IMG/VR virus record: IMGVR_UViG_3300045988_101293
Coordinates: 1 to 62,254 of that record
Length of the DNA: 62,254 nucleotides
Origin: a virus
Reading direction: 5' to 3' (one strand)
The position numbers and the translations under genes are program-made. Shown here piece by piece: positions 4,570 through 42,500 of this stretch (the stretch's first letter is position 1; the number at the start of each line of letters is the position of its first letter). A model generated the notes under the pieces. That model was not told the DNA's origin and searched no databases. It saw nothing but the letters and a program-made list of their open reading frames with translations.

Positions 4570-5361
4570 TTAGTTTGCATTCATTATTTTATCAACAAGG
4601 CTGCAAACGTATTTGTCCGCTTTTATTACCTTGTCATTCAGCTCTCGTATAACGTCCTCGTCACGCATAATCTCGAGCGAATACAATGGCTTTCGCATGA
4701 ATGGGTTGTACACTACGAAGTACGTTTTAGTTGCTCCTGTGACAGCCATGTGAGCGAAGCACTGCCAATAGTAGTTCGCTTCTGCTTTCTTCAGTCCAGC
4801 AAGTTTTTCCTCGTAAGTGTCTTGTGTGAATACATTCTTGACGAACTTGATGAAATTTTGCGCTAACGGGCATTTAATCTCAATCGCGTAGAAGGCTTTT
4901 GCTTCGTTGTCGTAGTACATTCTGTCAGGCGAGCTTGAGAAGTTCGGCAGACTATCGCTCTTGACTGATGGTGGCTCGTCTAACTCAATCGGTGTGTTAG
5001 AACCATTGCCATACTTCTTGTTGTAGGTCTTAGCGAATAGATGTGCTGCTTCACCTTCCATTGTGTGTCCCCAATCAAGTATTTTGCTATGTACTTCTGT
5101 GATTGATAAGTACTCACTGAAAAGGTCATCGTTTTGCACAACGATAGGATTTAATGTGCGCTCAAATGCAATTACATTCAGGTAAGACTGAGCAGTTGTT
5201 GTCCATTCTTCTGATTTACTTCGCGGTGTACCCATAATGTTGCCAACCGCACTACCTGTTATATAGCCCAATCGCGAGCGATACCATTCTATGTTATTCT
5301 GATTGTTGTTGTCGTACATCGTTATTCGTTTTAAAGTCATGTATTGCAATTCTGTTACCAC
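4570..5361 (-). CDS. YqaJ-like (lambda-Exo-type PD-(D/E)XK) recombination exonuclease
   Basis: Motifs RLGYITGSAVGNIMG, WGHTMEGEAAHLF and SPDRMYYD...AIEIKCP. Lies directly downstream of the RecT-like gene. The true start is probably an internal Met near 5319. Confidence 0.75.
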   Translation of the reverse strand: MVTELQYMTLKRITMYDNNNQNNIEWYRSRLGYITGSAVGNIMGTPRSKSEEWTTTAQSYLNVIAFERTLNPIVVQNDDLFSEYLSITEVHSKILDWGHTMEGEAAHLFAKTYNKKYGNGSNTPIELDEPPSVKSDSLPNFSSSPDRMYYDNEAKAFYAIEIKCPLAQNFIKFVKNVFTQDTYEEKLAGLKKAEANYYWQCFAHMAVTGATKTYFVVYNPFMRKPLYSLEIMRDEDVIRELNDKVIKADKYVCSLVDKIMNAN

Positions 5362-6358
5362 TTCGTATTATAAGTGGTAAAGCAGTCTGTAAATATGATT
5401 TTGGAATACTAACTGCTTTTGTAAAACCTTTATCACTTGCATGGGTTCCGATGTTGTCCAGCACTTGTGCAATGGTTTCGGCATCTTGTTCGTATGCCTC
5501 ATAATAAGCGCCATAGTTAACAAGTAATATTACTTCGTTATGTTCCTTTTTTAGCATTTGCCATTCTTCTATTCCGAATGGCTTTTGCTCTTTTTGTTCT
5601 TGCTGTGCCTTTTGCGCTTGTTCAGCAACCGCTGTCAATGAAGGCCGTCCAATTTCGTCTGTCGGTACATCAACAACTTGCTTGGGTTCTTCGCGTACCT
5701 CAACAACTTGTGCATATTGGTCGTTGATTTCTTCTGTTGTCATCAGTCCCATGCTGATTTCGGGACAATACACGCGTTGCCAAAATGCAGCAGCTCTGTA
5801 TCGTAACATTTGACTTGGCATTGTTAGCCACTTGCTACCTGTCTTTGTGGTCCAGCCTTCTGCCTTTGCCATTTTCATGGTAATCCAATCACCGCAAAGT
5901 GGTTCTTTGTGTTTCGTGTCTGCTGCTTCATAAGCAATTGCACGACAACCATATTCATCTGTGCCTTCTTCGCCTTTAAATTCGTAACGCAATGGCGAAA
6001 AACGTTTGCTCGCGTTGATACACGCAATCAAGAACTTGCTACTGAATGAGGGTTGCCCATGTACGATATACAAGTTCTGCATCACCATGAGTGGATTAGC
6101 TTGCATACGTGTTGCCATCTCAAGTGCAATCGTGCAGTTAGCGATTACTGATTGTGCATCAAGTGGCTGCTTGTTTTTAAACTTGTAAGAGTCGGGGATA
6201 AAAGAAGAAACAGCATACATACGTGCAATTCGCATGGTAGCTTCGAATTGCTTAACTTGCTGCCCGATAGGAGTTAAATCAAAATCGGCCTCTCTTTTAA
6301 TTTGCAAGAGCTTTATTTCTTGCTCTTGCTGTGTTGTTTGTACTACAGGATTGTCCAT
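5294..6358 (-). CDS. recT: RecT-family single-strand annealing protein with a C-terminal MutS-domain-I-like extension
   Basis: Start MDNPVVQTTQQ at 6358. The core (MATRMQANPLMVMQNLYIVHGQPSFSSKFLIACINASKRF) is RecT-like. The C-terminal 83 aa (5333..5581) align by eye to the MutS mismatch-binding domain. Confidence 0.7.
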   Translation of the reverse strand: MDNPVVQTTQQEQEIKLLQIKREADFDLTPIGQQVKQFEATMRIARMYAVSSFIPDSYKFKNKQPLDAQSVIANCTIALEMATRMQANPLMVMQNLYIVHGQPSFSSKFLIACINASKRFSPLRYEFKGEEGTDEYGCRAIAYEAADTKHKEPLCGDWITMKMAKAEGWTTKTGSKWLTMPSQMLRYRAAAFWQRVYCPEISMGLMTTEEINDQYAQVVEVREEPKQVVDVPTDEIGRPSLTAVAEQAQKAQQEQKEQKPFGIEEWQMLKKEHNEVILLVNYGAYYEAYEQDAETIAQVLDNIGTHASDKGFTKAVSIPKSYLQTALPLIIRSGNRIAIHDFKTNNDVRQQQSE

Positions 6359-6392
6359 TTTGTTTTGTTTTTTTGAGTGGTTAATACATTTG

Positions 6393-6487
6393 TGCCAACC
6401 GAAGGAATCGAACCCTCGAACGCTATAAATAAGCAACATTACTAACTTTAAACTCAATCATGGATTTTGCGTTGAACCTTCGTTGAC
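6393..6487 (-). ncRNA. tRNA-like element 1: canonical T-arm (GAGGG-TTCGATT-CCTTC) but no foldable cloverleaf
   Basis: The minus strand reads ...GCGTTCGAGGGTTCGATTCCTTCGGTTGGCACA. The only 5' partner for the acceptor side (GTCAACG, 6/7 pairs) gives a 94-nt molecule. The middle forms a long imperfect hairpin, not D or anticodon arms. Confidence 0.3.
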
Positions 6488-8992: not shown

Positions 8993-10207
8993 ATGAAATA
9001 CGTATACACCTTTGCAGTTGATGCGCGCGGTTCTCTGCGCGTGTTTATCACATATAATAAGCGTAAGTTTTCCTATTCGCTCGGGTTTCATGTTGACAAG
9101 AGTAAATGGGACATGGCTATGCAGCGGTGCAAGCGTAACACCACTCACGGAAAGAGCTTTACGCCTGCAATCAAGATAAATGCAGAGATACAGAAGTATG
9201 AGGAGACAATACAATCTGTTGCCAACTCATTCAAGGATTCTCCTGCAATAGAAGACTTCAAGGCTGCGCTTGACAAGGAGTTTAAGCGTGAAAATAAAAC
9301 TGCACAAAAGGAAGGCTTCTTCGACCTCTATGAGAGGTATATACGCGAGCAGGACAGCATCTGTAATTGGAGCGACAGCGTATATCGGAAGCATCAACGG
9401 ATATTGCAAGAATGGAAGATGTTCGATGCCGAGATGAGCATCGACAAAATAAATCCTGATACGCTTGACAAATTTGCGGTCTTCCAGTCTAACCTCGGCC
9501 ACCAGAACGAAACAACCAAGAAGAAAATCTCAATGTCCAAGTGGTTCTTCCGCTGGCTTGTTGCCAAGGGTCTATTAACAGACATTTCCTTTACGGCCCA
9601 CAAGACACACCTCAAACGTTCTAACCGCAATGTAGTGTTCTTAACGTGGGAGGAATTGATAACAGTATATAATCACACGTTCGAGCAAACTTATCTGTCA
9701 CGCACACGCGATATATTTTGCTTTTGCTGTTTCACGTCCCTACGCTATTCCGATGCCGCTGCATTAAAAAAGACAGACATATACGATGACGCAATACACA
9801 TAACAACACAAAAAACAAATGATAAGATTACAATAGAACTTAACAACTACTCTCGCACAATCTTGCAGCGGTATGCTGATAGCGAAACTGACAAGGCTCT
9901 CCCTGTCATCTCCAACCAAAAAATGAACGTATATATCAAGGAAGTGTGCCGTCAATGCGGCATCAACGAAAAATTGACTGATATATATTATATAGGTGGG
10001 AAGAAAATAGAAGAAACAAAAGAAAAATGGCAAATGGTCGGCACGCACAGCGGAAGGCGTACATTTATCTGTAATGCGCTTATGCTTGGAATTGCGCCCA
10101 ATGTTGTGATGAAGTGGACGGGACACTCCGATTATAAGAGTATGCAGCCTTATATAGACATAGCGGACGAAGCAAAAAAAACGGCTATGGACTTGTTCAA
10201 CAAATAG
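8993..10207 (+). CDS. int: Tyrosine recombinase / phage integrase (Bacteroidota type)
   Basis: C-terminal catalytic region SLRYSDAAAL...HSGRRTFICNALMLGIAPNVVMKWTGHSDYKSMQPYIDI shows the R...HxxR...Y signature. Confidence 0.85.
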   Translation: MKYVYTFAVDARGSLRVFITYNKRKFSYSLGFHVDKSKWDMAMQRCKRNTTHGKSFTPAIKINAEIQKYEETIQSVANSFKDSPAIEDFKAALDKEFKRENKTAQKEGFFDLYERYIREQDSICNWSDSVYRKHQRILQEWKMFDAEMSIDKINPDTLDKFAVFQSNLGHQNETTKKKISMSKWFFRWLVAKGLLTDISFTAHKTHLKRSNRNVVFLTWEELITVYNHTFEQTYLSRTRDIFCFCCFTSLRYSDAAALKKTDIYDDAIHITTQKTNDKITIELNNYSRTILQRYADSETDKALPVISNQKMNVYIKEVCRQCGINEKLTDIYYIGGKKIEETKEKWQMVGTHSGRRTFICNALMLGIAPNVVMKWTGHSDYKSMQPYIDIADEAKKTAMDLFNK

Positions 10208-11141: not shown

Positions 11142-11495
11142 TTCAAAACTCTTCATATACCGCCATATCTTGTTGCAAGGCGCGTCTTCGTCCTCAAAGA
11201 AAAATGCATGACCTGTTTCTATAATCAAGTCTGTAGTCAACGTTTTGCACAAGTCGGCATAAGCAGCGTTAAACGCTACATACTTGTCGTAATCCGTCAC
11301 ACAAGGCTTGAACTGCAATCCCTTCGTTGCTTCAAGGACCTGCTCCATGCTCCAATGCGGCCCGTGATGCTCTGTACCGTCCTTAGTCGTGTAGTATATG
11401 CGGCTTACCGCCTCTTCTGCACTTTCCTTGTCGAAGTGCTTGCACTTGCCACCACCCTTGCAAAACACAATATACAATCTTCCCATAATCATCAT
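11139..11495 (-). CDS. Hypothetical protein
   Basis: 118-aa ORF, last gene of the minus-strand late unit. Confidence 0.45.
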   Translation of the reverse strand: MMIMGRLYIVFCKGGGKCKHFDKESAEEAVSRIYYTTKDGTEHHGPHWSMEQVLEATKGLQFKPCVTDYDKYVAFNAAYADLCKTLTTDLIIETGHAFFFEDEDAPCNKIWRYMKSFE

Positions 11496-11974
11496 TTTTT
11501 AAATTCGTTGATAAAATCACGAAGGACAGCGCCAAGGCTCTTCACCTCGTTCTCAATTCCTTCAATCCGCTTATCTTGCGCTCGTTTTTCGGCAAAAGCA
11601 GGATTAAGATCCTCCAACAACTGGTTACAATTTATCACCGTTTGCTTGTGTATCTCAACCTGTGACAATGCCTCCTCGCTTGCAGCTTTAAGTGCTTCCA
11701 CTTCTCTTAGTATTCCGTCCTTGTCAGTTGACAACACAAGATGCCCAGCATACGTTATTGATGCAGTTTCGGGAATTGTGTATGTCTTGGTTGCACCATC
11801 TGCCTCAATGGTTATATCCACAACAAGACCAGTAGGCTGCGCACCGAAAGCCTTGGCTTGGTTATTGTCGTAACGCGGAACTGCAACACTCACGGCTTTG
11901 CCTTGATAGTACCTTGTTTTCTCCTTGTCAAGGAAGTAAATCGGGTAGCCAGTCTTTATGTCTTTGAATAGCAT
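11492..11974 (-). CDS. Hypothetical protein with a C-terminal coiled coil
   Basis: 160-aa ORF; ATGA overlap with the next gene. Confidence 0.45.
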   Translation of the reverse strand: MLFKDIKTGYPIYFLDKEKTRYYQGKAVSVAVPRYDNNQAKAFGAQPTGLVVDITIEADGATKTYTIPETASITYAGHLVLSTDKDGILREVEALKAASEEALSQVEIHKQTVINCNQLLEDLNPAFAEKRAQDKRIEGIENEVKSLGAVLRDFINEFKK

Positions 11975-12141: not shown

Positions 12142-12975
12142 TCATGTCGTTGCAGTCGTAGTTTTGCCCAAAGCAGCAATCAGTGCGGCAGTTTGGTTCT
12201 GCTGAGATAATTCAAGGCGAGCATCTTGATACTTGCGGTCAATATCGGCATACCAATGGTTGTTAAGGGCGTCAATTATGCGCTGAGTGTTGTCCTGTCC
12301 AGCACGAATCACATCGCACTTGTCCTGCGACATCTGATAGCCTACAGAGCTAAATCCACGCTCCACCGATGAGTTTACGAAATTCAAGTTTTGCTGCAAG
12401 GCGTTGGTTTGCCCCTGAATAGCAATCTGATTTTCATAACCCATTTTCAAGATTCCTTGTTGCGTATTGCAGCAACAATTCTGAATTGCTTGAATTACGG
12501 CCGCGTTACCTTTGTCGGCTGCGTTAATAACGCGCTCTGCTGAGAAGCCTACTTGCCCTGCTACTTGGTCAATTGCTGAACGTACCGCGCACACTCCTTG
12601 CTGCAACTGATTAAAGTCGCAATTAAGGTTTGCACCCAGTGTTGTAAGAGCATCGTTATTACCCTTGATAGCCTGCATCAGCAAGTCGGAGTTGTGGTTG
12701 TCGGCCATCTGTGAGCGCAAAGATTGTATTTGGCCCTGTATCTCCGCATCTTGCAGACCATTGCGGTTGCCGAACCCGAAGCCATTGCCACCGAACATAG
12801 CAAGGAAGATAAGGTACAAGAATGGATTGTTAAGCCATTGGTTCGCGCCACCCAAACCACCATTCATCATAGCTGCCATTGCAAGTGGGTCATTGTTTTT
12901 GTTCGCCATTGCTGCATAGGCAAGGGCATCGTTGTTCCCTCTGTCGCAACAGATTACTTTCTCTACATTGTCCAT
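12142..12975 (-). CDS. Cys/Gly-rich membrane-associated protein with a Q/N-rich coiled region
   Basis: Likely start MDNVEKVICCDRG at 12975. Hydrophobic FLYLIFLAMFGGNGFGFG. Confidence 0.5.
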   Translation of the reverse strand: MDNVEKVICCDRGNNDALAYAAMANKNNDPLAMAAMMNGGLGGANQWLNNPFLYLIFLAMFGGNGFGFGNRNGLQDAEIQGQIQSLRSQMADNHNSDLLMQAIKGNNDALTTLGANLNCDFNQLQQGVCAVRSAIDQVAGQVGFSAERVINAADKGNAAVIQAIQNCCCNTQQGILKMGYENQIAIQGQTNALQQNLNFVNSSVERGFSSVGYQMSQDKCDVIRAGQDNTQRIIDALNNHWYADIDRKYQDARLELSQQNQTAALIAALGKTTTATT

Positions 12976-13117
12976 AATTATAAATGTATTAAGTCGGTCG
13001 GGGAATATCCCCCGATACCGCAAAGATTGTGACAAGTTGCTTGTGATTTGCTTGTTAGTTTTGTTTGTTGTTTGTGAGTTGTTTGTACTCAACTCTGCAC
13101 CAATAATTGTTAATTTA

Positions 13118-13149
13118 TTTGGAAGTTGTAGATTGCAGTTGTATCTTTG
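13118..13149 (+). promoter_or_regulatory. Bacteroidota-type promoter (TTTG-N20-TAtcTTTG) of the HEPN-like cassette
   Basis: TTTG at 13118..13121 and TATCTTTG at 13142..13149, 26 nt upstream of the ATG at 13175. Confidence 0.55.
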
Positions 13150-13174
13150 CACTCAAATAAGAGTGTGTTATTGT

Positions 13175-13570
13175 ATGAAAAATAAATCTCAACAATCATT
13201 GGAAGCTGCGCAAAAACTAATAAATTTGCGCAAGCCACTTGGTTATAATTCATCAATACATTGCTCTTATTATGCGGTATTGCAATATATGAAATATATG
13301 CTTGCTAACACACGGAATACTCCGTTATCTTATGAACAGCAAGATATTTCAAGCCAAAGTTCTCATGAGTACCTTTTGACTGAAATTACCAACAGATTTG
13401 ATAGTTACAACGAAAGACGAAACTTCACTCATCTATTTAGACTTCTAAAGAAAAATAGGGTCGAGGCCGATTACACCACAAAAGATTTCTCGGAATTTGA
13501 GAGTTTGAAATGCAAAGAAAATGCAGAAGCCGCGATTAAAAAAATAAAACGTAATTTGGGTGACCTATGA
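13175..13570 (+). CDS. HEPN-like four-helix protein (putative toxin/effector of a three-gene cassette)
   Basis: SIHCSYYAVLQYMKYMLA...SSHEYLLTEI...LKKNRVEADY fits the HEPN helix pattern. The R-x4-Y replaces the usual R-x4-6-H. Confidence 0.5.
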   Translation: MKNKSQQSLEAAQKLINLRKPLGYNSSIHCSYYAVLQYMKYMLANTRNTPLSYEQQDISSQSSHEYLLTEITNRFDSYNERRNFTHLFRLLKKNRVEADYTTKDFSEFESLKCKENAEAAIKKIKRNLGDL

Positions 13571-13998
13571 AAAAGGAAATAATCAAAGAACAACTTAATA
13601 CATGGTTTGGCCAAATGCTGCAAAAGTATACTTGGCTTAGTATAAAGTTTGAGTATAACGATTTGGAAAAATGCTTCATGGTTTCCTTTTCGCCTAAATT
13701 CATCATATCTCAAGATGAAGGATTTTGTAAAGAGGCTCTGACTTTTGAGAACGAAATGAATGAGGCGTATGGAGATTACGCCCCTTTGTTCTGCGATGAT
13801 GAAGATCTTTTTACTTTGTCTTCTGGAGCTGAGTTTTTGTCAAATCAGACATCAAACTCATTCTATACAGATGAAACGATTGATTTCGCGGAAGTGAACA
13901 TTTGCGATGTTTCAGCGTATATATCCTCTGAAGAAATTGAGCAAAATACTGATATTGAGGTAGTGCAATATAACAATAAATACAGAATAGCGGCATGA
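13567..13998 (+). CDS. Acidic protein of unknown fold (putative antitoxin / partner)
   Basis: ATGA overlaps with both neighbours. The Asp/Glu-rich C-terminal half has no recognisable motif. Confidence 0.45.
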   Translation: MKKEIIKEQLNTWFGQMLQKYTWLSIKFEYNDLEKCFMVSFSPKFIISQDEGFCKEALTFENEMNEAYGDYAPLFCDDEDLFTLSSGAEFLSNQTSNSFYTDETIDFAEVNICDVSAYISSEEIEQNTDIEVVQYNNKYRIAA

Positions 13999-14414
13999 AA
14001 CCAATAGAATACCAAATTGCATCAATGCGAGTGCTGCATTCCAATATTATTCCTGAAAATTACGATGCAGAAGGACGTATTCAGTTAGGCAATACATTCT
14101 CTTTTGGAGTTAATGTGGACAACAAATTAATCCTATGCAATCACAAGTTTGTTTTGAAAAAGCAAACTGAAACCTTTGTTGATATAGAATTAGAAACAAT
14201 CTATACAATCTCGTCTGAATCTTTTAATGAAATGATAGACAATGGACGAATTGTAATTCCTACTGGGTTCTTAGTCCAATGCGGATCTATAAGTTATGGG
14301 TCTTTACGTGGTATAGTTTTATTGAAGACGAAAGAAAAAGGCTTAGATAATGTCATTATTCCGCCAATGTATATCGACCAAATTATCAATGAACCTGTTA
14401 TCATGAATTTGTAA
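13995..14414 (+). CDS. SecB-like chaperone-fold protein (candidate)
   Basis: N-terminal YQIASMRVLHSNIIPEN compares with SecB FQIQRIYTKDISFEAPN. C-terminal CGSISYGSLRGIVLLKTKEKGLDNVIIPPMYID compares with SecB [33 protein letters not shown]. Confidence 0.45.
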   Translation: MKPIEYQIASMRVLHSNIIPENYDAEGRIQLGNTFSFGVNVDNKLILCNHKFVLKKQTETFVDIELETIYTISSESFNEMIDNGRIVIPTGFLVQCGSISYGSLRGIVLLKTKEKGLDNVIIPPMYIDQIINEPVIMNL

Positions 14415-14462
14415 ACACAACATTAACTTCTCGAATCCTAACTTGTAAGATTCCATATAAAT

Positions 14463-14488
14463 AAAGACCACCCATTTAGGTGGTCTTT
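14463..14488. terminator. Bidirectional intrinsic terminator after the three-gene cassette
   Basis: AAAGACCACC-cattta-GGTGGTCTTT, followed by a T-rich tract. Confidence 0.7.
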
Positions 14489-14584
14489 ATTCATTCTTTT
14501 TAGTCAGTCCTTTATCTCGGATTATTTTCGGAAAAATGCACAGAAAACACGCATTTCTGCCAGATTATCACCGATTATTTTCCA

Positions 14585-14875
14585 CTATTGCGTAACCAGA
14601 CGCTTCTTCACCTCCTCCCTCATCACCCGTGCAGCAAGCCCCTTAAGCCTGTACCTCGCACTATTCTTCAGTGAGTTTACTCGCTGCTGACTCATTCCGC
14701 TAACGGCTGCAATATCAAACTCCGTAAAGCCAATCTCAATAAGCGTGTTAATCATTACCACACGCGCAATAACACTTCTTTCTGTGCGTGAGGTCGCGAG
14801 TTGTTCAAATGTTAATCCAATCGCTTCTAAGGTGGCTTCAACCACTCTGTTGTATATATCTTCAAGTTGTTTCAT
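14585..14875 (-). CDS. Small HTH protein (DnaA-domain-IV-like / sigma-region-4-like)
   Basis: Likely start MKQLEDIY. RTERSVIARVVMINTLIEIGFTEFDIAAVSGMSQQRVNSL. Confidence 0.45.
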   Translation of the reverse strand: MKQLEDIYNRVVEATLEAIGLTFEQLATSRTERSVIARVVMINTLIEIGFTEFDIAAVSGMSQQRVNSLKNSARYRLKGLAARVMREEVKKRLVTQ

Positions 14876-14968
14876 TATTTCGGATTTTATTGTTGATTGA
14901 ATAAAAGACAAAGGCAAGCAGAGGAACACCGCGCACGGCTCCTCGCTTGCCAACTCAACACAATAAAA

Positions 14969-15451
14969 TCACTTACGTTTTTTGTATATAAAGTAGTAGA
15001 TGATTGCAACAATCGCAACTAATAAAATAGAGTAAAAAGCAAATTTCTTCGCTTCGTACAATGCAGATGTTTCAGCAACTTTCTTTTGTTTTGTACTTAT
15101 CGTTGTTTGCTTTCCTTTGCTATTGCTTACACGCTGAACGTTGCTCGCATGGCTATTCGCGCTCAGCGCGTCCTTATTATGATACACTTTCCTGTCTCGG
15201 TACACATATTTTGTCAGCACTCGACCTGTGGTGTCTACCACAACGTATGTAACCATGTTGTCTGTTACGCTGTCGGTTGTTTTATGAGTGGAAATAACCT
15301 TGATGGTGTCATACACTTGTAGCGTGTCGCTATGGTGGATGATGAGTGTATCACTCGTTCGCTCCATGCTCTGCACCACCTTGCGCGCGCAACTGCTGTG
15401 CAAGACAACTGCACAGAAAATGACAAGAAGAAAACTACAAATTCTATTCAT
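14969..15451 (-). CDS. Lipoprotein-signal plus C-terminal TM protein (unimolecular-spanin-like topology)
   Basis: N-terminal MNRICSFLLVIFCAVVLHSSC (signal plus Cys). C-terminal FAFYSILLVAIVAIIYYFIYKKRK. Confidence 0.45.
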   Translation of the reverse strand: MNRICSFLLVIFCAVVLHSSCARKVVQSMERTSDTLIIHHSDTLQVYDTIKVISTHKTTDSVTDNMVTYVVVDTTGRVLTKYVYRDRKVYHNKDALSANSHASNVQRVSNSKGKQTTISTKQKKVAETSALYEAKKFAFYSILLVAIVAIIYYFIYKKRK

Positions 15452-15467
15452 TTTTTACAGAATACAT

Positions 15468-15498
15468 TTTGTTATTTGGAACATTATCGTTACCTTTG
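15468..15498 (+). promoter_or_regulatory. Bacteroidota-type promoter (TTTG-N19-TAccTTTG) of hicAB
   Basis: TTTG at 15468..15471 and TACCTTTG at 15491..15498. Confidence 0.55.
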
Positions 15499-15522
15499 CA
15501 TTGTTCTAATAATAAATCAGCG

Positions 15523-15720
15523 ATGGTAAAATTTTCAGAGTTGTATAGGTTGTTAGAATCCAATGGTTGGGAAATCAAAAAAGGTTCGCGACATTTCAAA
15601 TATGTTCATTCCGATTTTGATTTTTTCATACCCGTTGGCCGTCATAAATCAGCAGAAGTGCCTACTGGCACACTAAATTCTATTTTGAGGGCGGCTGGGT
15701 TGAAACAACCTAAGAAGTAA
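15523..15720 (+). CDS. hicA: HicA-family mRNA-interferase toxin
   Basis: MVKFSELYRLLESNGWEIKKGSRHFKYVH...VPTGTLNSILRAAGL matches the HicA pattern. Confidence 0.8.
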   Translation: MVKFSELYRLLESNGWEIKKGSRHFKYVHSDFDFFIPVGRHKSAEVPTGTLNSILRAAGLKQPKK

Positions 15721-15768
15721 AAGAACCATGGTTCTCCGCTCCATATTAAGTGGAGCGGTTCTTTCTAT

Positions 15769-16191
15769 TTGAATAACCCCAAAATGCCAAGTAATATGAA
15801 ACTTAATGCTGTTATTGAACGCGGACAAGATGGCGGATTTGCCATCTGTGTTCGGGAAATGCCCTGGCTGCTTGGCTATGGCAAAACCGAATCAGAAGCA
15901 AGGGAAGATTTTAACGATGTTTTCAAAGAGCAAGTTGATTACTTCTTTGAGAAACACGGGAAATATCCAGATTGGAAAAATGCAGAAATATCGTTTACAT
16001 ACGATTTGACAGCATTCTTTCTTGCATTTCCCTTTATCAACGCCTCTGAATTTGCTCGTTTTGTTGGGCTTAACCCCTCTTTAATGCGCAAATACAAGCA
16101 AGGACTTGCATCAGCATCAGACAAGCAGTTGTACATTATCCAGCAAGGATTAAACAAGTTCGTTGACCATCTGAAATCTGTACAATTCTGA
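15769..16191 (+). CDS. hicB: HicB-family antitoxin with a C-terminal HTH
   Basis: LNAVIERGQDGGFAICVREMPWLLGYGKTESEAREDF (HicB fold) plus ASEFARFVGLNPSLMRKYKQG (HTH). Confidence 0.75.
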   Translation: MNNPKMPSNMKLNAVIERGQDGGFAICVREMPWLLGYGKTESEAREDFNDVFKEQVDYFFEKHGKYPDWKNAEISFTYDLTAFFLAFPFINASEFARFVGLNPSLMRKYKQGLASASDKQLYIIQQGLNKFVDHLKSVQF

Positions 16192-16279: not shown

Positions 16280-16795
16280 TCAAACAAACTTTCCATACGC
16301 AAAGTGGTTCACCCGATTTAGCCAACCGTTTAAGTTCACTTTTTGGCTCGGATTTTTTGCCACAATAGCCCGATAAAACGCTATCCTGTCTTGCTTCAAC
16401 GCTCCAAACAACGGCAGCGGACTACGCGTGTTTACCGCCTGCAAGGTCTGCTTGCCCATGATGCCATCGGCAGTAGTCTTAACTATCCGCTGCAAGTGCG
16501 TCACGGCCGTCTTGACTCCGCTATTATAGGCCCAGTCCACAAGAATAAAAGCCACACTCTTGTCCTGTATGTAGTCAGCCCTGCACTTGTCCCAATAGTA
16601 TCTCTTGAATATGTGCTCCCACTCTGCATCACTGATGCGCTTCAAGTCCTCAACCGTCTTGTGCTGCCCAAACACACTGCGGTAAGTCGCCAATGTCACA
16701 CCCTTGTTAGTAGGGCCTCCCTTGTCAGCCTTTCTGTTGCAATAGCCGCCCTCGCGCTCCAGCACAAATGCCGCTAATTCTTTCCAATTTTCCAT
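16280..16795 (-). CDS. Endolysin, glycoside-hydrolase-108-type N-acetylmuramidase with a peptidoglycan-binding tail
   Basis: LEREGGYCNRKADKGGPTNKGVTLATY...YYWDKC...DWAYNSG...ADGIMGKQTL...GWLNRV. Confidence 0.8.
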   Translation of the reverse strand: MENWKELAAFVLEREGGYCNRKADKGGPTNKGVTLATYRSVFGQHKTVEDLKRISDAEWEHIFKRYYWDKCRADYIQDKSVAFILVDWAYNSGVKTAVTHLQRIVKTTADGIMGKQTLQAVNTRSPLPLFGALKQDRIAFYRAIVAKNPSQKVNLNGWLNRVNHFAYGKFV

Positions 16796-22103: not shown

Positions 22104-22843
22104 GGCTCTTCACTTTGTTGAGGTTGATACTGCTGAACTTGCTGAGGTTGTTGCTGAATAGTGTCAGTAATATCGGCCAACTGCTTAGCAGTAGTCAGTA
22201 ATACGGCTGCTTGTCCTTCAGCATTAAATGCTATTGTTGCTAAATAAGCAATAGCATACACAATGGGCCTATAAAGTCTTTCGGGCAATGAAATCTCGCC
22301 ACTTTTATTTATTTGGGGATTTGACAAATAGGTATAACTACACGCTGATTTACCAGCACATGAATAGGCTTCAAAGCAATAATCGTTATCGCCACTTTCA
22401 ATGTTCGGAACAAAAGCTAACACAGGCCTTTCGGGGCAACCCCTTACTCCTTCAACTCTACTACGCTGCAAGGTATATTCGGCATCAGTAGGAGTTATGA
22501 CCTCCTCTTCGGTAACAGGCATCAGCCAATCAGCCATACGGAACGAAACAAGTCGAAAGTAATCATTGGGTACTGCAACTTGTGCATAATAGCGTTTGTC
22601 ATTATCGAACACCTTATTGTATTCCACATTGGGTTTTTCTATCGTTGTTATGCCCTTACCTATCATGTGAATAGGTGCAGCACCAATAATGAGTTTCGCA
22701 CCATCTACTATTTTTGACTGAATAATCTCGTCAAGTGCCAGCGTATCATAGTCTCCAAAATCAGACAACATAGTTCCGTCCATATTTTGGTCAATGGCAA
22801 TGCGTACCTCTTTTACTATTTCATTTACTTTATAATTGGTCAT
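22100..22843 (-). CDS. Neck / head-tail adaptor candidate
   Basis: Immediately downstream of portal with an ATGA overlap. Q/P-rich tail. Confidence 0.35.
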   Translation of the reverse strand: MTNYKVNEIVKEVRIAIDQNMDGTMLSDFGDYDTLALDEIIQSKIVDGAKLIIGAAPIHMIGKGITTIEKPNVEYNKVFDNDKRYYAQVAVPNDYFRLVSFRMADWLMPVTEEEVITPTDAEYTLQRSRVEGVRGCPERPVLAFVPNIESGDNDYCFEAYSCAGKSACSYTYLSNPQINKSGEISLPERLYRPIVYAIAYLATIAFNAEGQAAVLLTTAKQLADITDTIQQQPQQVQQYQPQQSEEP

Positions 22844-24831
22844 TGTAGTTGTCCTCCATACGTTGGTTCTTCATCACCTCTCACGGCACCATAGAGTTGA
22901 TTTACTGCGTTCATATTAGCACCTTGTTGCGCTTGTTGCATAAGTTCGGGCGAAACTCCTTCGGGCATCTGCCCTTGCTGCATTTCTTGTTGCTGGCTCT
23001 GAATACTTTGTAACAATTGGTCGGCAAACGTAAAGTCGCCCACTTCAAGCAACTGCTGCAAACTGATTTGCCCCGACTGCCAAAACTGAATAAGATAATC
23101 GTTGGCTATTTGTCGGTAAACAGGTGTTGCGGTTGACTCTACAATAGATAGGTCAAACTCCGTGTCGCGTATCTTATCAGGGTCGTATTCAATTTGCGTG
23201 GCCGAGCGACCTGCAATGTTGTAAGTTCGCTTTTGGTCGTAAAACTGCTGAATGTTTTTTACGTCCTTATAAGCTGCGTCAATTACAAATTGCGAAAAAG
23301 AGTCTAACAAATCCAACAAACTTGTTGTAGCGTTCTGTGCCTGTTGAGCATATAGCGTACCACTCGTACTACTAACTCCTTGTCGGCCTTGCAAAGCACC
23401 ATGCACACCACTAATGTCCTCAAAAAACTTTAGTTGCAAATTCAGCAATTCACTGATACCAATGTTTGTTGAATTGTTCGCCACTTGTGTAGGAGCAGGA
23501 ACACCAGGCTTAGCATGATACACCACCACACCATTAAATCTTGTCCAAGCATCAGCAAAATCTTCAGGACTTTGGTCGCCCAAACAATCATCTGGCACGA
23601 GCAACACACCTTTTGCCGAAGCACGCATTATCCAATCATACAAGGTGATAAGACGATTTGAATAACGCTGCTGGTCTATCACATCTGAAACGAAAGAATG
23701 TATTTCGCCATCAATGAACGGATATGCCTTGAACACATAAGGGTGGCTTTTGTGCGCATAAGGTGTTTCGCACTCCGCTAAAATGTCGCCAAATGGGGTT
23801 AGATAATAGTAATACCAATAACTATCAACAAACCATTCTGTTTCAATTAAGGGAATATCATCTACCTCCATTCCTGCTTCACGGCCTTGTTCAATGCGCT
23901 GCGCATTTACATCGTCAACAAGTTCTTTCTTGTCTTGAACATCTATTTTGAAAATGTCACCATTATTGTAGTCATGACATCGAATGCGAGGTTTTTGCTC
24001 TTTGCGCCACACCTCAATTACACGACAAAGCGACTCATCTGTGTTCAGCAAAAAGTCAAGGTCGTTGCGTTTTGTCGAAACACCAAAACGTTCACGTGTG
24101 CTAACAAAAGTTTTTAAATCGTTAGCAGCACGATAAATGTTCGCTAACCTTTCATAATCATCTGGCGATTGTGCAAATTGGGCTACAAGGTCGCCAAATG
24201 TGATGTCGTGTATCTCGCCAAGACAAGTAACATCCCAACCACGAAAATCACGCATATTGGTGTCAACAAAAAAACGATTGGGATTAACATAATCCGTCCA
24301 ACAATCTAACTTGTCGTTGCGCCAACCATACCACTTTCTGTGAACTACAAATGCGCCTACCATATACTCTTCCATGGTTCTTGCATAAAGTTCATTCATG
24401 CGGTTGAGTTGCATATTATACTGCAACACGGTTGACATCGTTTCTCCTAGCTTTTGTTCATCGCGGTCGCGTGCGTTGCAAACGGGTTCTTTGCTTTGGC
24501 TACGATACACACCTATCACATTGCGAATAAGGCGACGAATAAGATTGTTCTTTAGTGGAATATTACCTTGGCTGCGTATGTAGGCTTCTTCGGTCATTCT
24601 ACGTTTGCAGCCATTCTCTTCCACTTCAATCATATCGTCCCATTGGTCTCCGTAAGCATAGCGTTTATTGCGCTCACGTTCCTTACGGAAATCGTCCATA
24701 TTATTCCAGAAAGTTTGTGCCATTGCAAGCACCTCATAAGCTCTTGAAGGGTTATGCTTCTTTTCTGCTGCAACGGAATCCATTCCGCCAACGTTATCTG
24801 GTTTTACTTTGGATAGTGAGTGCAATTCCAT
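22840..24831 (-). CDS. Portal protein
   Basis: 663 aa, typical size, positioned next to the capsid and scaffold genes, acidic/Q-rich C-terminus. Confidence 0.6.
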   Translation of the reverse strand: MELHSLSKVKPDNVGGMDSVAAEKKHNPSRAYEVLAMAQTFWNNMDDFRKERERNKRYAYGDQWDDMIEVEENGCKRRMTEEAYIRSQGNIPLKNNLIRRLIRNVIGVYRSQSKEPVCNARDRDEQKLGETMSTVLQYNMQLNRMNELYARTMEEYMVGAFVVHRKWYGWRNDKLDCWTDYVNPNRFFVDTNMRDFRGWDVTCLGEIHDITFGDLVAQFAQSPDDYERLANIYRAANDLKTFVSTRERFGVSTKRNDLDFLLNTDESLCRVIEVWRKEQKPRIRCHDYNNGDIFKIDVQDKKELVDDVNAQRIEQGREAGMEVDDIPLIETEWFVDSYWYYYYLTPFGDILAECETPYAHKSHPYVFKAYPFIDGEIHSFVSDVIDQQRYSNRLITLYDWIMRASAKGVLLVPDDCLGDQSPEDFADAWTRFNGVVVYHAKPGVPAPTQVANNSTNIGISELLNLQLKFFEDISGVHGALQGRQGVSSTSGTLYAQQAQNATTSLLDLLDSFSQFVIDAAYKDVKNIQQFYDQKRTYNIAGRSATQIEYDPDKIRDTEFDLSIVESTATPVYRQIANDYLIQFWQSGQISLQQLLEVGDFTFADQLLQSIQSQQQEMQQGQMPEGVSPELMQQAQQGANMNAVNQLYGAVRGDEEPTYGGQLQ

Positions 24832-36508: not shown

Positions 36509-39500
36509 CTATTTTTTTTGAGGTTTGTTTTGCTTTGCAATATCTATGATACGTTTGACTATATCTTTGCGCATCTCAATGGTCTTGTTGCTTCTTTCTT
36601 CAGCTTTTTTGGGGTCATTTGAATAGTCTTGCATCCAAAGGTTGTAAAGTTCTTTCATTTCTTTATCTTCTGAATTAACAACTCCCTTTGTCGCTTCTAT
36701 CACTTTTACGGCTTGCTTTTGAATGTCAACTTGTTGCTGCTGCAACTCTTTGTATTTGTCGCTATTAGGGTCAGTTACAGACATTGCCTTTCGCACAGCA
36801 CTTAGTTGTTTATTATATGAGTCCATCATAGTTGCGCTAAAGCCTTCGGGCGAATACATTAAATCATAAAACTTTGACTTGTACTCTGGGGCCTGCAATT
36901 CCTTTTTGTAAAGCGAAAGCAGTTCTTTCGTCTTTTGATATTCATCGTTGTATTTATAAAACTTGCTGGTGATGGCTCTGTCTTTGGTTCTTTCGTCAGA
37001 TGTTTTATAGAAAGAATTAATGATTGGCACATTTTTCAGTTCACGATTATCTTCATTAAAAGGCATTGAAGCTACCTTCATCGTTTGGAACACGAACTTA
37101 CCTAATCCGCCAAAATAGCCTTCAAACAAGTGCTGAATTTTAGCAGGGTTCACGTCCATCACTCCAACATTTGCTTTCTTTACATCGTCACCTCCACCCA
37201 ACTCATTCAGCAAGCGACTTGCCCACACAAGAGCTTGATTAGTACCCTTGTAGGCTTTCGTCCATTCGGGTCGGTTTTTGTTGTATTCAGCGTCTTTGTA
37301 AATGGGTGTGCCTGTGTAATCCTTATTTGTAACGTATGCTTCAACTATGGGCTTTGCGTAACTTGGCACAAATGAGGTTAAGCTGCCACCGCCCTCCATA
37401 AAGTCAACGGGGAATAATTGTGACACTTGTTCAAGCATTTTGGTAGCGATGTCAGTGGCAGTGTATTCCTCATTGCCCGAAAGCACACTTTGCGCCAACT
37501 CTCCTAAGCCATAAAAAGCACGCAACTCAATTGGCAATGGAATTGTTACCCACCCCTTGCCAGTGTAGAAGCACAGATTGTTTCTGCGTACCCAATCGGG
37601 CAAGTCGTAATAGTTTGTATCGTCATCGCCACTGCCTTGTGAAAGAGCTGCCATCAGCATAGGAAGTGCTGTTCCTATGGCAAAGTACAAACCTGCAACT
37701 GCAAGTGTTTTGCCTTTACTCTTTCCAAAAGTTCGGCTTACGTTTGACAAACCTTGAACTCCTGCATTCCAGAATACGTACAACTCTTTTGCACTTTGCG
37801 ACATGTAGGCTTGCATAACGTTTAGTCGGTTTCCGTCCTCCCATTTGCCTGCTGCCTTTGCGCCAGCACCTTTTTTGTTGAAATTAACTGAAATCTCCTT
37901 AGCGTCCCAAATTGATTTTTCAATGCTGCGTCCCATTTCACGGCTTGTTCTGTAAGCTGCAAATCGGCTTGTGTTTTCGGCCCATGTTCCAAGGTAATTG
38001 ATTAAATTGTCAAGGAACTTCAACCACGACTTCGGATTCCAACCACTGCGTCTACTTTCTTTCAGTGCCTTTGCAATCATGTTTTTATAATCGTCAACAC
38101 TGTGCAAGAAGGTATAACCTGTTTCACCACCATTTTCAATAAACTCTTGATACATTCGGTCAACTTTGTCGTTCATGTTAAGTGTTCCCTTGCGTTGCCT
38201 TGTTATCAAACCGAACAAGGTGTAAAGACTTTTGCCCCAATTTTTATTGAACTTCCACGCATACGCTGGCGACTCCTTGGCCCAAACCATGCTGTTTGCA
38301 TAAAAGCTATCGCGTGACAAATTGCTAAGAATGAAAGCTGGGTTCTTTTGCGTGAACATAGCTGCCATGAAATGATTTGTTGATTGGAAGAATTTAATGA
38401 ACGGATTATCCGTGCTGTCAGGATTGGTCTGCCCATTCAATGCTTGCGCTGCTTCGTGGTTGCCGTTTATTGTTAGCACATAATCTTTACCTTGCATTTT
38501 TACATGCACTTGGTGTTCGTTGATGTTCTTACCTACCACCTTGTATTGAATGTCATGAGCTTCGCTCGCCTTTTTGTACTCATCTGGCTTTTGTTGGCAT
38601 AAGGTTTCCATTCGTTGATTGAATGCTTCGACCTTTTGCGCAACAGCATTCGCATCGTCATGCTCATCAAACTCGGCAAAAACAGGTTTCCACTCTTGCG
38701 TTGCAGCATCATAGTGCAAGTAAAGTTGGTCAACGCTCACTGCATCACTTGGGTGGTTCAACACCATTTTTAAAAAGTGTTGCTTCATCTGGTTGCGATT
38801 GCCTTGCATAATGGCAGACTCGGCCATGTTGCCAATCGTTGCTATGGGGTCGTCAGCCTTACTCTTACGACCTTTTGCGCTACGTATGCCACCGCCAAAT
38901 TGGCCTTTTGCATTGCCAAAGTAGTTGTACACCTCGTCACTTGTTACATCGTCAAAACCACGCAAAGGAATGTAGTTTTTAAACATATCAAGTGTGTGGT
39001 GATACACCTCGTCTGTCAAAAGTCCACTTTCATATTGCTTTGTGAGCGAAGCCTTTGTGGCAGCATTCGTTCTGTTCCACAATTCAGATGTGTCGTATTT
39101 TTTCTCAAAGTTTGATGAGGAGTTTTCAGCTATACGTTCTGCTTCGTTCACCATCTCTTTATTTAGTTTCGCAATTTTTATTCTGATACTTTTTTTCGTT
39201 GCATCATCTCGTTCATTGTTTAACTGCTCTTTGAGTGTAGCTATTTGGTCTTGATAGCTCTTTATGCTTGGGTCGTCTGTCGTAAGTTCGGTAAGGCCCG
39301 AATAATCTTTGCTCCTGTACTTTTTGTAACTGGGTGCGTACTTCTCTCTTATGGCCGTGTCGTTTGCCTTATAATCGTCCCAACTGATTTTGCCACTTTC
39401 AAAGTCTGTTTTGTTCTGTTGTGCAGTTGCATCGTTTTTATAAGCCTTCCATGCTGCTGACATCTTTTGCTTATCGTTGGCAAAATCATGTTTCAAGGCA

Positions 39501-42500
39501 TCTCTAAATGCAAGCACTTCATTTCGCTCCAATCCGTGTTTTGCCATCATGTAGTTAGTCACTTGCTCGTGAATAGTACCTTTGTCAAGCAACTCTTGTT
39601 CGGCATCAAGCAGGTCTTTATAGAACGACTTTTTGTACGTTTCCATCTCGGCAAGGTTGGTCGAACTCATTCGGTTCTCGGCCATGTAGGCATTCTCCCA
39701 ATCTTTCAAATCTTTTTCGTTGGGTACAATCGCGTCTTGCAACAATTTTAGTCCCGACATGCTATCCACCCATGCAAGGTTCATTTTATGCTTTGCCGTG
39801 TTTACGCTTCGTTCATATTCATCGCGTGCGCTTTTGCGTTCTCTCTCTTCGCGGTAGTATAAGTTCTGCTCACGTGTTTTTGCGTCAACCGCTTTAGGTT
39901 CGGCAAAGTCGCCTACCTTTAAGTGTTGTTGTCGCCACGTGTCTTCGGCCACTTGATAGATGTTGCGTGCAGGGCCTTCAGCCAAGTTTTTCCAACTGCG
40001 CCACAAAAGGTAACGTAAGTCATTATCGCTAAGTGTTGTTCCGCTAAAGCCAGCAAAGCCTAACTTATGAAGCATTTTAAGGAATGCAAGTTTTAGTTGA
40101 TGCCACCATCGTTTGTTCACATTTTTGAAAGTTCTGTCCTCGGCCATACTTGCCATATATTCCTCTGTGGCTTTTCGCATATCCCAACCATATTTGGCTG
40201 AATTATGGGCTATTTGGCTGCGTGTGGCTTTGTCAGCATTTTTGAAAACGAAGTCAAGGAACTCATTCATTTTCTCTTTACCGACAAGTTCTCTTAAGCC
40301 ATAATGCCCTACGGCTTCATGTAGCATGGTGTTAACAACATCGGCTCGGCCATTATGGTTAGGCAGCACAATGGTGATGCGCCCTGTTTGAGGGTCGTAC
40401 CACCCTTTTGCATTCTTTTTGCGTCCCGTCAGTCCGTCTGTCGAAGTCAACACATCTACATTGCCACCTAAGTGCATTTCGTTTGCTACGGCCTTAGCTG
40501 CTTGGTGCATAGATTTTTCTTGGAGAGAAAGTTGCGATGTATCGGGATTATTCTCTACCTTTGCAGTAGGTGTTGAATTGTTTCGGGACAAAGTTCCGTC
40601 GGTATTCCGTTCTTGCGGTAGTAACAATTCAGCACCATTTTTTATTTTGTTACGTAAGTTGCCATCTCGTTTTATGTGTACAGAACTTACATAATCTTCA
40701 ACCTCTCCATGTTTATTAACTGCTACTATATTATACGTATTACCGCTATTATCGCTCTTAAATCGTTTTATGTATAATGTACTACCATCTTTGTCACGTA
40801 TGGCAAAATCAGCATTTTCAATAGTTGAAAGTACTGCACCTGATATATTTGAACGTTTCTCGCGTATAATTTTATTGAAAACCTCGTCCTTTACTTTTAC
40901 GAGTTCCCCTAAAAATGTTCGTATAGGGTGCTTGAATACTTCTTTAAAACTCTCTAAAGTTGAAATGGATTTTGGCAGACTTTCACTTGTCGGTTCACTG
41001 AAAATATTATCAAGTGCAGCAAGTGCTTCTTCACCTTTCAAGGTTTTAGGCTCGGTTTCTCTGAACCTCACATCTTCCACATTCTCGTCAAAACGCTTCG
41101 AAGGAGGAATAATCTCACCATTATCATCACGCGTAACAAGGTCATTCAATTTGCGGTTATTCTCCACATTCTTGTACTTGTAACCTCTGCCATCGTCAAA
41201 GCCCCACTCACGACTATCGTTTCCGTCCCACCACAACTCACTCACGGGAACCTCATCCTCAATAATGCGGTACTTGCCCTCTAAGCGGTTGTTGCCATGC
41301 ATCTCAGCATAACCCTTTGATGGAGTCACCCAGTCACCATTGCGCAATTTTCCTTCTTTCACAGATGTAGGCACAGCACGATACACTTTCACCTTTACAT
41401 TCTTCTCGCCACGTCTGACTGCGGCTATTGCCTCTCTTATCGCGTTTACCGACTCCACAGCAGTAGCGTCAGTCTGCATGTACTTGCGTGGCTCCTGCCA
41501 ATATTTTTCGTCAACCAACGAATAGCCTAAAGCTATATCTTCAATATTTACATCGGGAGCATTCTCCTCCACATCTTCTCTGCGCGCTGCATCACTCTCA
41601 TAACCAGGGTTAGAGGGTGCGCTCCATGCCCCCACACCTTGATAGTCGCTTTCAGTGTCATCATACCCCTTACGGCGTGCAGCCTCGTCAAGCATCTCAC
41701 GTGCAGCGACCTCGTCACCATTCTCAATCGCATCAAAATAACGCTTGTCAAGTTCCTCGGTTGACAATAACGACATATCTTCTAAGTGAGCCTTGCGTTT
41801 CGCCTCCTCTTCCTCGGCACGTTTGCGAGCTGCCTCCATAACGCCTTGTTCACGCATAACAGCATCAATGTGTTCCTTCCGCAACGTTTCTATGTCGCCA
41901 TAACGTTCAGCCAGTTCCTTTTGTACAGGACGGAACAATTTGCTAAACTCCGAAAGTTTCATACCTCGGTTCGCCACGCGCATTGTGCGACGTATTTCTG
42001 CCAATGCAATATTAGCCTTTTGCAAGTTGCCTGTCTTCATGCCAGACGCATAATCCTTCACCATATCTGCATCCACGCCATGCTCTTTAGCAAACTCTGA
42101 ATAATCATCATCCGTTTCCCTCTCTTGGGGCATTTCACTATTCGCATTTCCACCATCACCACTCATCAAGAAAATTTGATCCTCACGGCTCACATCCTCT
42201 GTTTCGGCTGCAAGGCTCGCTATACGCTCCTCTGGTGTCATATTCATACGATGCTCTACGTTGCGTGATTCTACTTCACCACCAAGTTTTGTGTACTCTA
42301 CATAAGGACTAAATTCAGAACGCGTACTTTCGTTTAAACGGAAATTCTTTATGTCTGCATCAAGACTTCTGTCTGCATACCCCCTTGCAAAGTAATTAAA
42401 ACCCTTCATGCGAGTTTCCTTATCGGGCATCCATTCATCATTATCCATGCCCATTTCCTTGTACTCATCAATTAGGGCTTTTTCCACTGCAGCTTGATTG

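Follow-up and report, generated by a model that had tools for sequence, protein, structure and literature searches.

An island of three plus-strand genes amid minus-strand phage genes raises the question of what such a cassette encodes and what its carrier gains from it. We analysed one such cassette in the IMG/VR virus record IMGVR_UViG_3300045988_101293, whose 62,254 nucleotides are hereafter called the window; positions refer to it unless another contig is named. An earlier note, made from the sequence without database searches, had proposed a candidate toxin-antitoxin-chaperone (TAC) or abortive-infection module that consists of a HEPN-like protein, an acidic protein and a SecB-like protein. 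We conclude that the cassette is likely a tripartite TAC module with a HEPN toxin; it belongs to the accessory cargo of a temperate Bacteroides-type phage and probably serves phage exclusion. The operon anatomy that underlies this conclusion is read directly from the sequence. Models and comparisons lend further support, namely the predicted folds, a predicted disordered antitoxin tail that ends like a degron, conservation of the trio as a unit, and its presence or absence among related phages in the manner of a cassette. The SecB fold, the HEPN match above threshold and the co-occurrence of the three genes hence speak for the TAC interpretation, and the tail with its xAA end, which the earlier note had not seen, adds to them.

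The operon and its three predicted proteins

The ORFs (open reading frames) on both sides of the trio (11492-11974, 12142-12960, 14585-14953 and 14969-15451) all lie on the minus strand. Both internal junctions, gene 1/gene 2 and gene 2/gene 3, are ATGA stop/start overlaps. The trio is preceded by a Bacteroides-type promoter and followed by an intrinsic terminator (Table 1). The promoter motif TTTG-N19-21-TAnnTTTG is found in seven copies in the window compared to 1.6 expected, a number that was reached in none of 100 shuffles, and another copy is located directly 5' of a neighbouring hicA gene. The terminator hairpin of 13 pairs is followed by a T-run and has a folding z-score of -5.3. One promoter, one terminator and overlapping ORFs, as co-transcription calls for, are thus present, in the order toxin-antitoxin-chaperone. 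As start of gene 1 we take the ATG at 13175 and not the upstream TTG of the mechanically called ORF, because all of the 33 aligned homologues start there and the promoter lies close 5' of it. The guanine plus cytosine (GC) content of the cassette is 34%, compared with 44-48% in its flanks. The predicted isoelectric points are 9.3 for the basic gene 1 protein and 4.1 for gene 2. The anatomy described in the earlier note, that is a plus-strand island with ATGA-linked ORFs, its own TTTG-N20 promoter, a strong terminator and an acidic second protein, was therefore seen correctly.

The gene 1 protein matches Pfam HEPN (PF05168) over residues 3-124 with 24.5 bits, above the gathering cut-off of 22. 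Its family comprises 59 clusters, many of which have precomputed PF05168 matches and some of which are named HEPN or UPF0332 in their source. In an alignment of 34 members S27, S31-Y32-Y33-A34, Q37, H64, R95, A98, D99 and Y100 are invariant. The canonical catalytic motif R-x4-6-H is not found; in its place stands R95-V-E-A-D99-Y100, an R-x4-Y, and since D99 and Y100 are invariant this motif is in fact a family-wide R-x3-D-Y. For the HEPN-T group (PF05168) an Asp in place of the motif His has been described in several proteins, and in the HEPN-T/AbiV variant the motif His is absent while a second conserved His is located N-terminal to the motif (PMC3710099). Judged from the alignment, R95/D99/Y100 together with the invariant alternative His64 are this documented HEPN-T/AbiV-type variant. 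The HEPN assignment of the earlier note thus stands, and so does the R-x4-Y that it had read (R95-VEAD-Y100), with the correction that the motif belongs to a known variant with an alternative conserved His. Gene 1 would accordingly encode an RNase toxin with an active site formed by R95/D99/Y100 and His64. Of the gene 1 homologues, the one in the chromosome of Dyadobacter sandarakinus (contig L231, 3001-3722) is the most distant, with 35% identity; it is followed by a 106-amino-acid ORF, with no chaperone gene. This ORF looks similar to the antitoxin N-domain by eye, but the hhalign probability is 0.4% and we do not claim a relationship; the Dyadobacter pair may be a two-gene relative of the trio.

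Searches of Pfam, NCBIfam, PADLOC and PHROGs gave nothing significant for gene 2. In its AlphaFold model the predicted local distance difference test score (pLDDT), averaged over blocks of 10 residues, is 83-95 up to about residue 90, and DSSP assigns structured elements to residues 2-92 in the order alpha-beta-beta-alpha-beta-beta. A Foldseek search of the model against the PDB returned nothing significant, the best match being a KH/Jag-like RNA-binding protein (E = 0.36). On the basis of the model, the N-domain is a new family that is not of the helix-turn-helix (HTH) type and has no known relative. It is conserved in the homologues, including a Prevotella copy (hhalign probability 100%, 41% identity). 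Residues 96-137, in contrast to the N-domain, have pLDDT values below 50. Length and sequence of this tail vary between homologues, yet every tail-bearing homologue ends with AA, mostly [ILM]AA, and the window protein with IAA; among the 115 ORFs of at least 100 amino acids in the window, two end with AA. Six aromatic residues are found in the 48 residues of the tail. TAC antitoxins carry a C-terminal intrinsically disordered chaperone-addiction element (ChAD), which is recognised via aromatic residues (Mets et al. preprint), and CmdA and other TAC antitoxins end with LAA, a ClpXP signal from which the chaperone protects them (PMC11618068). The predicted tail of gene 2 and its invariant xAA end match this description and strengthen the TAC reading.

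A comparison with transfer-messenger RNA (tmRNA) genes gives the C-terminal residues a further meaning. Tail ends in the family read ...ENNYALAA (locus P0040), ...SNNYALAA (Prevotella melaninogenica) and ...YNNKYRIAA (window), and the tmRNA genes that we fetched from metagenomes encode the tags GENNYALAA or GETNYALAA. One of these contigs (tag GENNYALAA) comes from Barnesiella intestinihominis, a member of the Bacteroidales, as seen from exact protein matches. Therefore, the tail end appears to be a close copy, and in the window a diverged copy, of the host degradation tag. On a human-gut metagenome contig (L175, 11950-12952, minus strand) we observed two tandem tmRNA genes about 200 bp apart, with the tags GNENYALAA and GETNYALAA.

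For gene 3, the AlphaFold2 (AF2) model has a pLDDT of 93.7 and a predicted template modelling score of 0.84, and consists of four long antiparallel strands followed by a long helix. Foldseek against the PDB returned above noise only structures of SecB type (probability 1.0, template modelling score (TM) 0.55-0.66). The top matches are SecB from E. coli (1qyn, 5jtl) and from H. influenzae (1fx3, 1ozb), and the top five include M. tuberculosis Rv1957 in complex with the HigA1 ChAD peptide (5mtw); thioesterase hot-dog folds rank far below. In PADLOC, gene 3 matches PDLC04763 (PDC-M64C) with E = 7e-8. An exhaustive profile search yielded a gene 3 family of 612 clusters at 50% identity, of which three members with 27-32% identity to gene 3 match PDC-M64C at E = 1.5e-7 to 2.6e-10 and a closer one at 2.7e-6. 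No match of gene 3 to Pfam SecB (PF02556) was found at E <= 1, and gene 3 profiles, both narrow and broad, gave nothing meaningful against PDB sequences. Taken together, the Pfam SecB miss, the SecB-fold model and the layout of the locus lead us to describe gene 3 as SecB-like in fold and context, not as a SecB sequence member; its relation to SecB rests on predicted structure. The SecB-like label of the earlier note consequently holds for the fold and not for the Pfam sequence family, and its by-eye alignment of the C-terminal half with E. coli SecB had the correct register, as follows by transitivity through a Prevotella homologue. Housekeeping SecB has been described as a chaperone of Pseudomonadota (Mets et al. 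preprint). At two other loci of the gene 3 family the chaperone gene is preceded by genes for a protein of about 180 amino acids and an HTH_3 protein of about 145 amino acids, again a TAC-like layout. The larger of these partners shows weak RelE/HigB-type similarity when read by eye and has the PADLOC label PDC-M64A/B.

Distribution of the trio and its slot in the phage genome

The spread of the trio was assessed by scanning the fetched loci with hidden Markov models (HMMs) of the three families. The order HEPN-antitoxin-chaperone was found in 27 of 27 trio-bearing loci, and the three genes occur together in at least six different genomic contexts, so the co-occurrence in other genomes that the earlier note had looked to was recovered. 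Among viral sequences, the trio is present in relatives of the window (L015-L017), in several short contigs (L005-L009), in a divergent viral contig (L018) and in a crAss-like phage (L003/L004, 4192-5429), where it lies, in the orientation of its neighbours, between genes that match the crAss_CARG1 and crAss_CARGO2 families; no integrase was found in the 10 kb of this contig that were examined. The presence in a crAss-like phage indicates that the cassette has moved between unrelated phage lineages. A 115-kb contig (L001) has the trio adjoining AbiEi_2, and contigs of Prevotella melaninogenica type (L010-L012) have it adjoining a HipA module. It is furthermore found between housekeeping genes in the chromosome of Porphyromonas circumdentaria (L013 and L027), in a metagenome-assembled genome (MAG) of the Porphyromonadaceae (L028) and, at two loci identified by a separate look-up (L232 and L233), amid Panacea and KAP NTPase genes in surroundings that resemble a defence island. 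A scan of genome contigs with antitoxin peptide patterns, which is stringent and undercounts the spread, returned only Porphyromonas circumdentaria and the Porphyromonadaceae MAG. Against GenBank phages, megablast with positions 11-17 kb of the window gave nothing, and neither did tblastn with gene 2, gene 3 or the orphan antitoxin described below; for gene 2, tblastn against plasmids was negative as well.

In the bacterial copies the third gene encodes a different SecB-fold protein, with only about 14% identity to gene 3, and Pfam SecB was matched in all of them, that is in Prevotella, in Porphyromonas and in a further metagenomic contig. The two chaperones that were scanned directly, from Prevotella and Porphyromonas, score 32-36 bits against Pfam SecB (cut-off 26) and match the PADLOC CmdC model PD-T4-9_C with E = 2e-26. 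One toxin-antitoxin pair is thus combined with two chaperone families, of PDC-M64C type and of CmdC type. The proximal part of the antitoxin tail is TIDFAEVNI-like next to PDC-M64C-type chaperones and [FY]x[FY]F[SD]-like next to CmdC-type chaperones, which is suggestive in a sample of this small size.

The gene content of the window is that of a temperate phage of Bacteroides type, into which the trio has been inserted as a discrete unit. A P22-like portal (22840-24831) shares 65% identity with the portals of the temperate Bacteroides phages BKO1-TP3 and BS-TP4, and the genes flanking the cassette adjoin a lysis region with a GH108 endolysin (16280-16795). Relatives of the flanking gene that encodes 272 amino acids were recovered on 77 IMG/VR contigs, and three of these carry the trio. 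Two sister phages (L034 and L036) have flanking genes that are 98-100% identical and a slot of only about 170 bp; their alignment with the window defines the limits of the insertion (Table 1). In 64 relatives both flanks were found, and the slot is empty in 18 of them (gap of roughly 50-350 bp) and otherwise filled with 0.6-4.2 kb of alternative cargo. This cargo includes an HTH plus Peptidase_M78 protein, a SocA/Panacea antitoxin with a 135-amino-acid partner, and two proteins with weak matches below threshold. One of these matches HigB-like toxins, a small HTH protein being encoded separately; the other matches HATPase_c_2 and has a 98-amino-acid partner. Several unknown proteins are also part of the cargo. 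In view of these varied contents of toxin-antitoxin or defence type, we consider the slot a hypervariable hotspot for such cargo. A reading of the cassette ends as target-site duplications or att-like sites was discarded: no direct repeat was detectable at them, and 334 of 500 shuffles reach the score of the best local alignment.

Some further features of the window were recorded. Compared with its relatives (L034-L110), the slot as a whole spans 12961-14584, between the genes for 272 and 122 amino acids. A tyrosine integrase with a Bacteroidetes-type arm-binding domain (8993-10207, plus strand) lies about 3 kb left of the cassette, and still further left is a 387-amino-acid ORF with MutS domain I (5294-6457, minus strand). 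A single ORF (36509-53233, minus strand) encodes a polyvalent protein of 5574 amino acids with the domains InPase, ddrB-ParB, LPD3, LPD23 and LPD38 and a weak, below-threshold ART-PolyVal match. No tRNA genes were found in the window. A second plus-strand accessory module (15468-16191) starts 1 kb downstream of the cassette, with its own Bacteroides-type promoter (15468-15498), a HicA toxin gene (15517-15720; Pfam HicA_toxin, E = 2e-13) and, in the HicB position, a 140-amino-acid ORF (15769-16191) that has no Pfam match and is a putative HicB partner. The HicA module is present in ten of the 77 related phages and in none of the three IMG/VR relatives that bear the trio, so the window joins two cargo modules.

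Copies of the antitoxin domain also occur outside the trio. On eight IMG/VR contigs (L019-L026; for example L019 4001-4294 and L024 3974-4267) we found a 97-amino-acid protein that is 43% identical to residues 1-92 of gene 2 and ends just past the folded domain, with neither the tail nor the xAA end. No HEPN or chaperone ORF was found within 4 kb of these copies. The only significant match of the gene 2 model in BFVD is likewise short, the 90-amino-acid protein A0A8S5SJ98 of Myoviridae sp. ct04y17 (TM 0.94, 44% identity). Removal of the ChAD from M. tuberculosis HigA1 gives a stable antitoxin that is independent of the chaperone (Mets et al. preprint). Hence, by analogy, the orphan tail-less copies can be read as candidate anti-TAC counter-defence proteins.

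Table 1. Coordinates and assignments of the cassette features in the window.
Feature	Positions	Strand	Properties	Basis
Whole inserted cassette	13088-14555	+	1468 bp, 34% GC	Indel versus empty-slot sister phages
Bacteroides-type promoter	13118-13149	+	TTTG (13118-13121), 20-nt spacer, TATCTTTG (13142-13149); ends 26 nt before gene 1 ATG	
Gene 1, HEPN-domain protein, predicted RNase toxin	13175-13570	+	131 amino acids, basic	
Gene 2, predicted antitoxin	13567-13998	+	143 amino acids, acidic	
Gene 2 residues 1-95, folded domain, predicted to bind the toxin	13567-13851	+		AlphaFold model
Gene 2 residues 96-143, predicted disordered ChAD-like tail	13852-13995	+	Acidic, aromatic-rich	Low pLDDT, homologue comparison
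Gene 2 last three residues I-A-A, putative ssrA-like degron	13987-13995	+		C-terminal AA invariant in homologues
Gene 3, predicted SecB-fold chaperone, PDC-M64C family	13995-14414	+	139 amino acids	AF2, Foldseek, PADLOC
Intrinsic terminator hairpin	14460-14491	+	13 bp stem	Between convergent trio and minus-strand gene 14585-14953

Relation to known systems and rival explanations

The closest parallels to the cassette are found among characterised TAC systems. CmdTAC (PD-T4-9) of E. coli ECOR22 is encoded in a hypervariable region of a P2-like prophage (Mets et al. preprint; PMC11618068). It shares with the cassette the tricistronic operon of toxin, antitoxin and SecB-like chaperone, the long unstructured antitoxin C-terminus with a ClpXP-type xAA end (predicted for the window protein) and the nature of a prophage hotspot cargo, and the HEPN trios of Prevotella and Porphyromonas have the CmdC-type chaperone as well. 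However, the toxin of CmdTAC is an ADP-ribosyltransferase and that of the cassette a HEPN protein, the folded antitoxin domain is here an unrelated alpha/beta domain, and the host phylum is here Bacteroidota. In PADLOC, the PD-T4-9 models match none of the three window proteins, the chaperone included. The original TAC system, HigB1-HigA1-Rv1957 of M. tuberculosis, and HigBAC of E. coli have the same gene order. The M. tuberculosis system resembles the cassette further in its SecB-fold chaperone and in the C-terminal chaperone-addiction extension of the antitoxin, which is linked there to ClpXP-dependent instability (Mets et al. preprint; PMC5105189). In HigBA a ribosome-dependent RNase of RelE/HigB fold is paired with an HTH (XRE) antitoxin, whereas the window combines a HEPN protein with a non-HTH domain; the chaperones share 11-16% sequence identity. 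The chaperone model of PDC-M64 matches gene 3, but genes 1 and 2 match no PDC-M64 model, so the full set is not present, and the partners at the two outside loci (L029 and L032) are unlike genes 1 and 2. A literature search found no publication that describes PDC-M64. Gene 1 itself resembles AF0298-like HEPN-T proteins (PF05168) and AbiV in keeping the motif Arg, lacking the His and having a second conserved His N-terminal to it (PMC3710099); those proteins, however, act solo, paired with MNT or as components of the AbiV system.

HigBA, HicAB and MqsRA have been listed as families coupled to SecB-like chaperones (PMC5105189), and CmdTA with its ADP-ribosyltransferase toxin was added later (PMC11618068; Mets et al. 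preprint). In a full-text literature search, no paper turned up that links HEPN to SecB, to TAC systems or to chaperone addiction. What is new here is thus the HEPN toxin class, the antitoxin domain, a chaperone branch that Pfam SecB misses and the occurrence in Bacteroidales phages, whereas the TAC architecture and its logic are known.

Transferred to the cassette, this logic suggests the following mechanism. Gene 1 would be the HEPN toxin, most likely an RNase. The acidic N-domain of gene 2 would bind and neutralise it in a type II-like manner, and the tail with its xAA degron would expose gene 2 to ClpXP-type proteolysis unless it is held by the gene 3 chaperone. As long as free chaperone occupies the tail, the toxin would be silent; once the chaperone is titrated away, the antitoxin would be degraded and the released toxin would lead to shutdown of the cell, that is to abortive infection. 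The titrant may, by analogy, be a nascent structural protein of the superinfecting phage: in the published models, the T4 capsid protein Gp23 triggers CmdTAC (PMC11618068) and the lambda tail protein gpV triggers HigBAC (Mets et al. preprint). The toxicity of gene 1, direct contacts between the proteins, the part played by a protease, what acts as trigger and how the lysogen benefits, presumably through the exclusion of competing phages, are what we infer for this system.

Several points weigh against this reading. Among the tested members of the gene 3 family, 0 of 139 match Pfam SecB at E <= 0.01, and hhalign of the broad family against CmdC-type chaperones gave a probability of 39% (E = 3e-4), which is weakly suggestive; a transitive sequence link from gene 3 to Pfam SecB was not obtained in this way. 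Our claim for gene 3 is therefore limited to similarity of fold, as opposed to homology with SecB. The predicted disorder of the gene 2 tail is derived from low pLDDT and a shallow alignment of 11 sequences, and ClpXP recognition of the I-A-A end in Bacteroidales is assumed from work in E. coli and mycobacteria. RNase activity of gene 1 is not assured because the canonical R-x4-6-H His is missing; HEPN domains without catalytic function are documented (PMC3710099), and the gene 1 family profile found no solved structure among PDB sequences. Finally, the proposed trigger and the anti-phage role of the cassette are drawn by analogy.

The same TAC machine might serve addiction instead of defence, so that post-segregational killing would keep the prophage stable or penalise its loss. 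Addiction modules classically pair a labile antitoxin with a stable toxin, the temperate phage has its integrase about 3 kb from the cassette, a HicA toxin gene with its putative HicB partner is encoded 1 kb away, and in the Porphyromonas circumdentaria chromosome the trio stands alone between housekeeping genes. We nevertheless regard addiction as an unlikely role, since the characterised E. coli TACs of such design act in phage defence (PMC11618068; Mets et al. preprint). The trio is also found in the crAss-like contig, of which the 10 kb examined contain no integrase, and in defence-island-like contexts, and tail-less orphan antitoxins in other phages are easier to explain as counter-defence.

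It is considerably less probable that the cassette is not a toxin-antitoxin system at all. In that case the HEPN protein would be a regulator that binds nucleotides or RNA without catalysis, and the SecB-like protein would help phage or host proteins to fold or assemble. The missing canonical His of gene 1, the precedent of non-catalytic HEPN domains (PMC3710099) and the lack of known antitoxin relatives of the gene 2 domain would fit such a role. A disordered tail with an invariant xAA degron beside a SecB-fold gene is, however, a TAC signature (PMC11618068), and R95, D99, Y100 and H64 are invariant, as an active site would be. Moreover, the cassette is absent from most sister phages with the same structural and lysis genes and is therefore dispensable for phage growth, and the trio also occurs in chromosomes with no phage genes nearby.

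In HEPN/MNT operons the MNT antitoxin gene is usually the first, whereas here the HEPN gene comes first. A type VII system, in which gene 2, as a nucleotidyltransferase that has diverged strongly, would neutralise the HEPN toxin by AMPylation and gene 3 would be an accessory, is highly improbable even though MNT antitoxins are the classical partners of HEPN toxins of the PF05168/DUF86 kind (PMC3710099): the weak Foldseek match of gene 2 to MntA (6m6w_A) is not significant (E = 1.9, probability 0.10), on which ground the MNT idea was rejected, gene 2 has no nucleotidyltransferase family match and, by reading, no G-S...D-x-D motif, and its tail and degron would be left unexplained.

Returning to the TAC module for phage exclusion, its parts could be combined into a more specific proposal, a new TAC subtype in which the PDC-M64C chaperone senses structural proteins of competing Bacteroides phages, the antitoxin carries an ssrA-type tag, the HEPN RNase is the effector, and the orphan antitoxins counter this defence independently of chaperone and protease. 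As a joint reading this is tentative, and we would not yet bet on all of its parts being right together. If it is true, the exchange between PDC-M64C and CmdC chaperones would be a case of natural sensor swapping.

Implications for phage defence in the Bacteroidales

Among the immune systems that sense phages, TAC systems are an emerging class, with HigBA, MqsRA, HicAB and CmdTA as the known modules and phage-defence experiments carried out in E. coli. If the reading given here is true, the cassette would add a fifth TAC toxin type, HEPN, and a new antitoxin fold. The gene 3 family with its 612 clusters may consist of TAC chaperones, and the two outside loci examined fit this view. One toxin-antitoxin pair with two chaperone families provides a natural test of modularity, which bears on the view of the chaperone as a phage sensor that can be exchanged. 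The orphan tail-less antitoxins could be a testable form of counter-defence. The Bacteroidales and their phages are a dominant lineage of the human gut in which defence biology is poorly explored, and the variable slot of this phage family offers a ready catalogue of candidate Bacteroides defence cargo.

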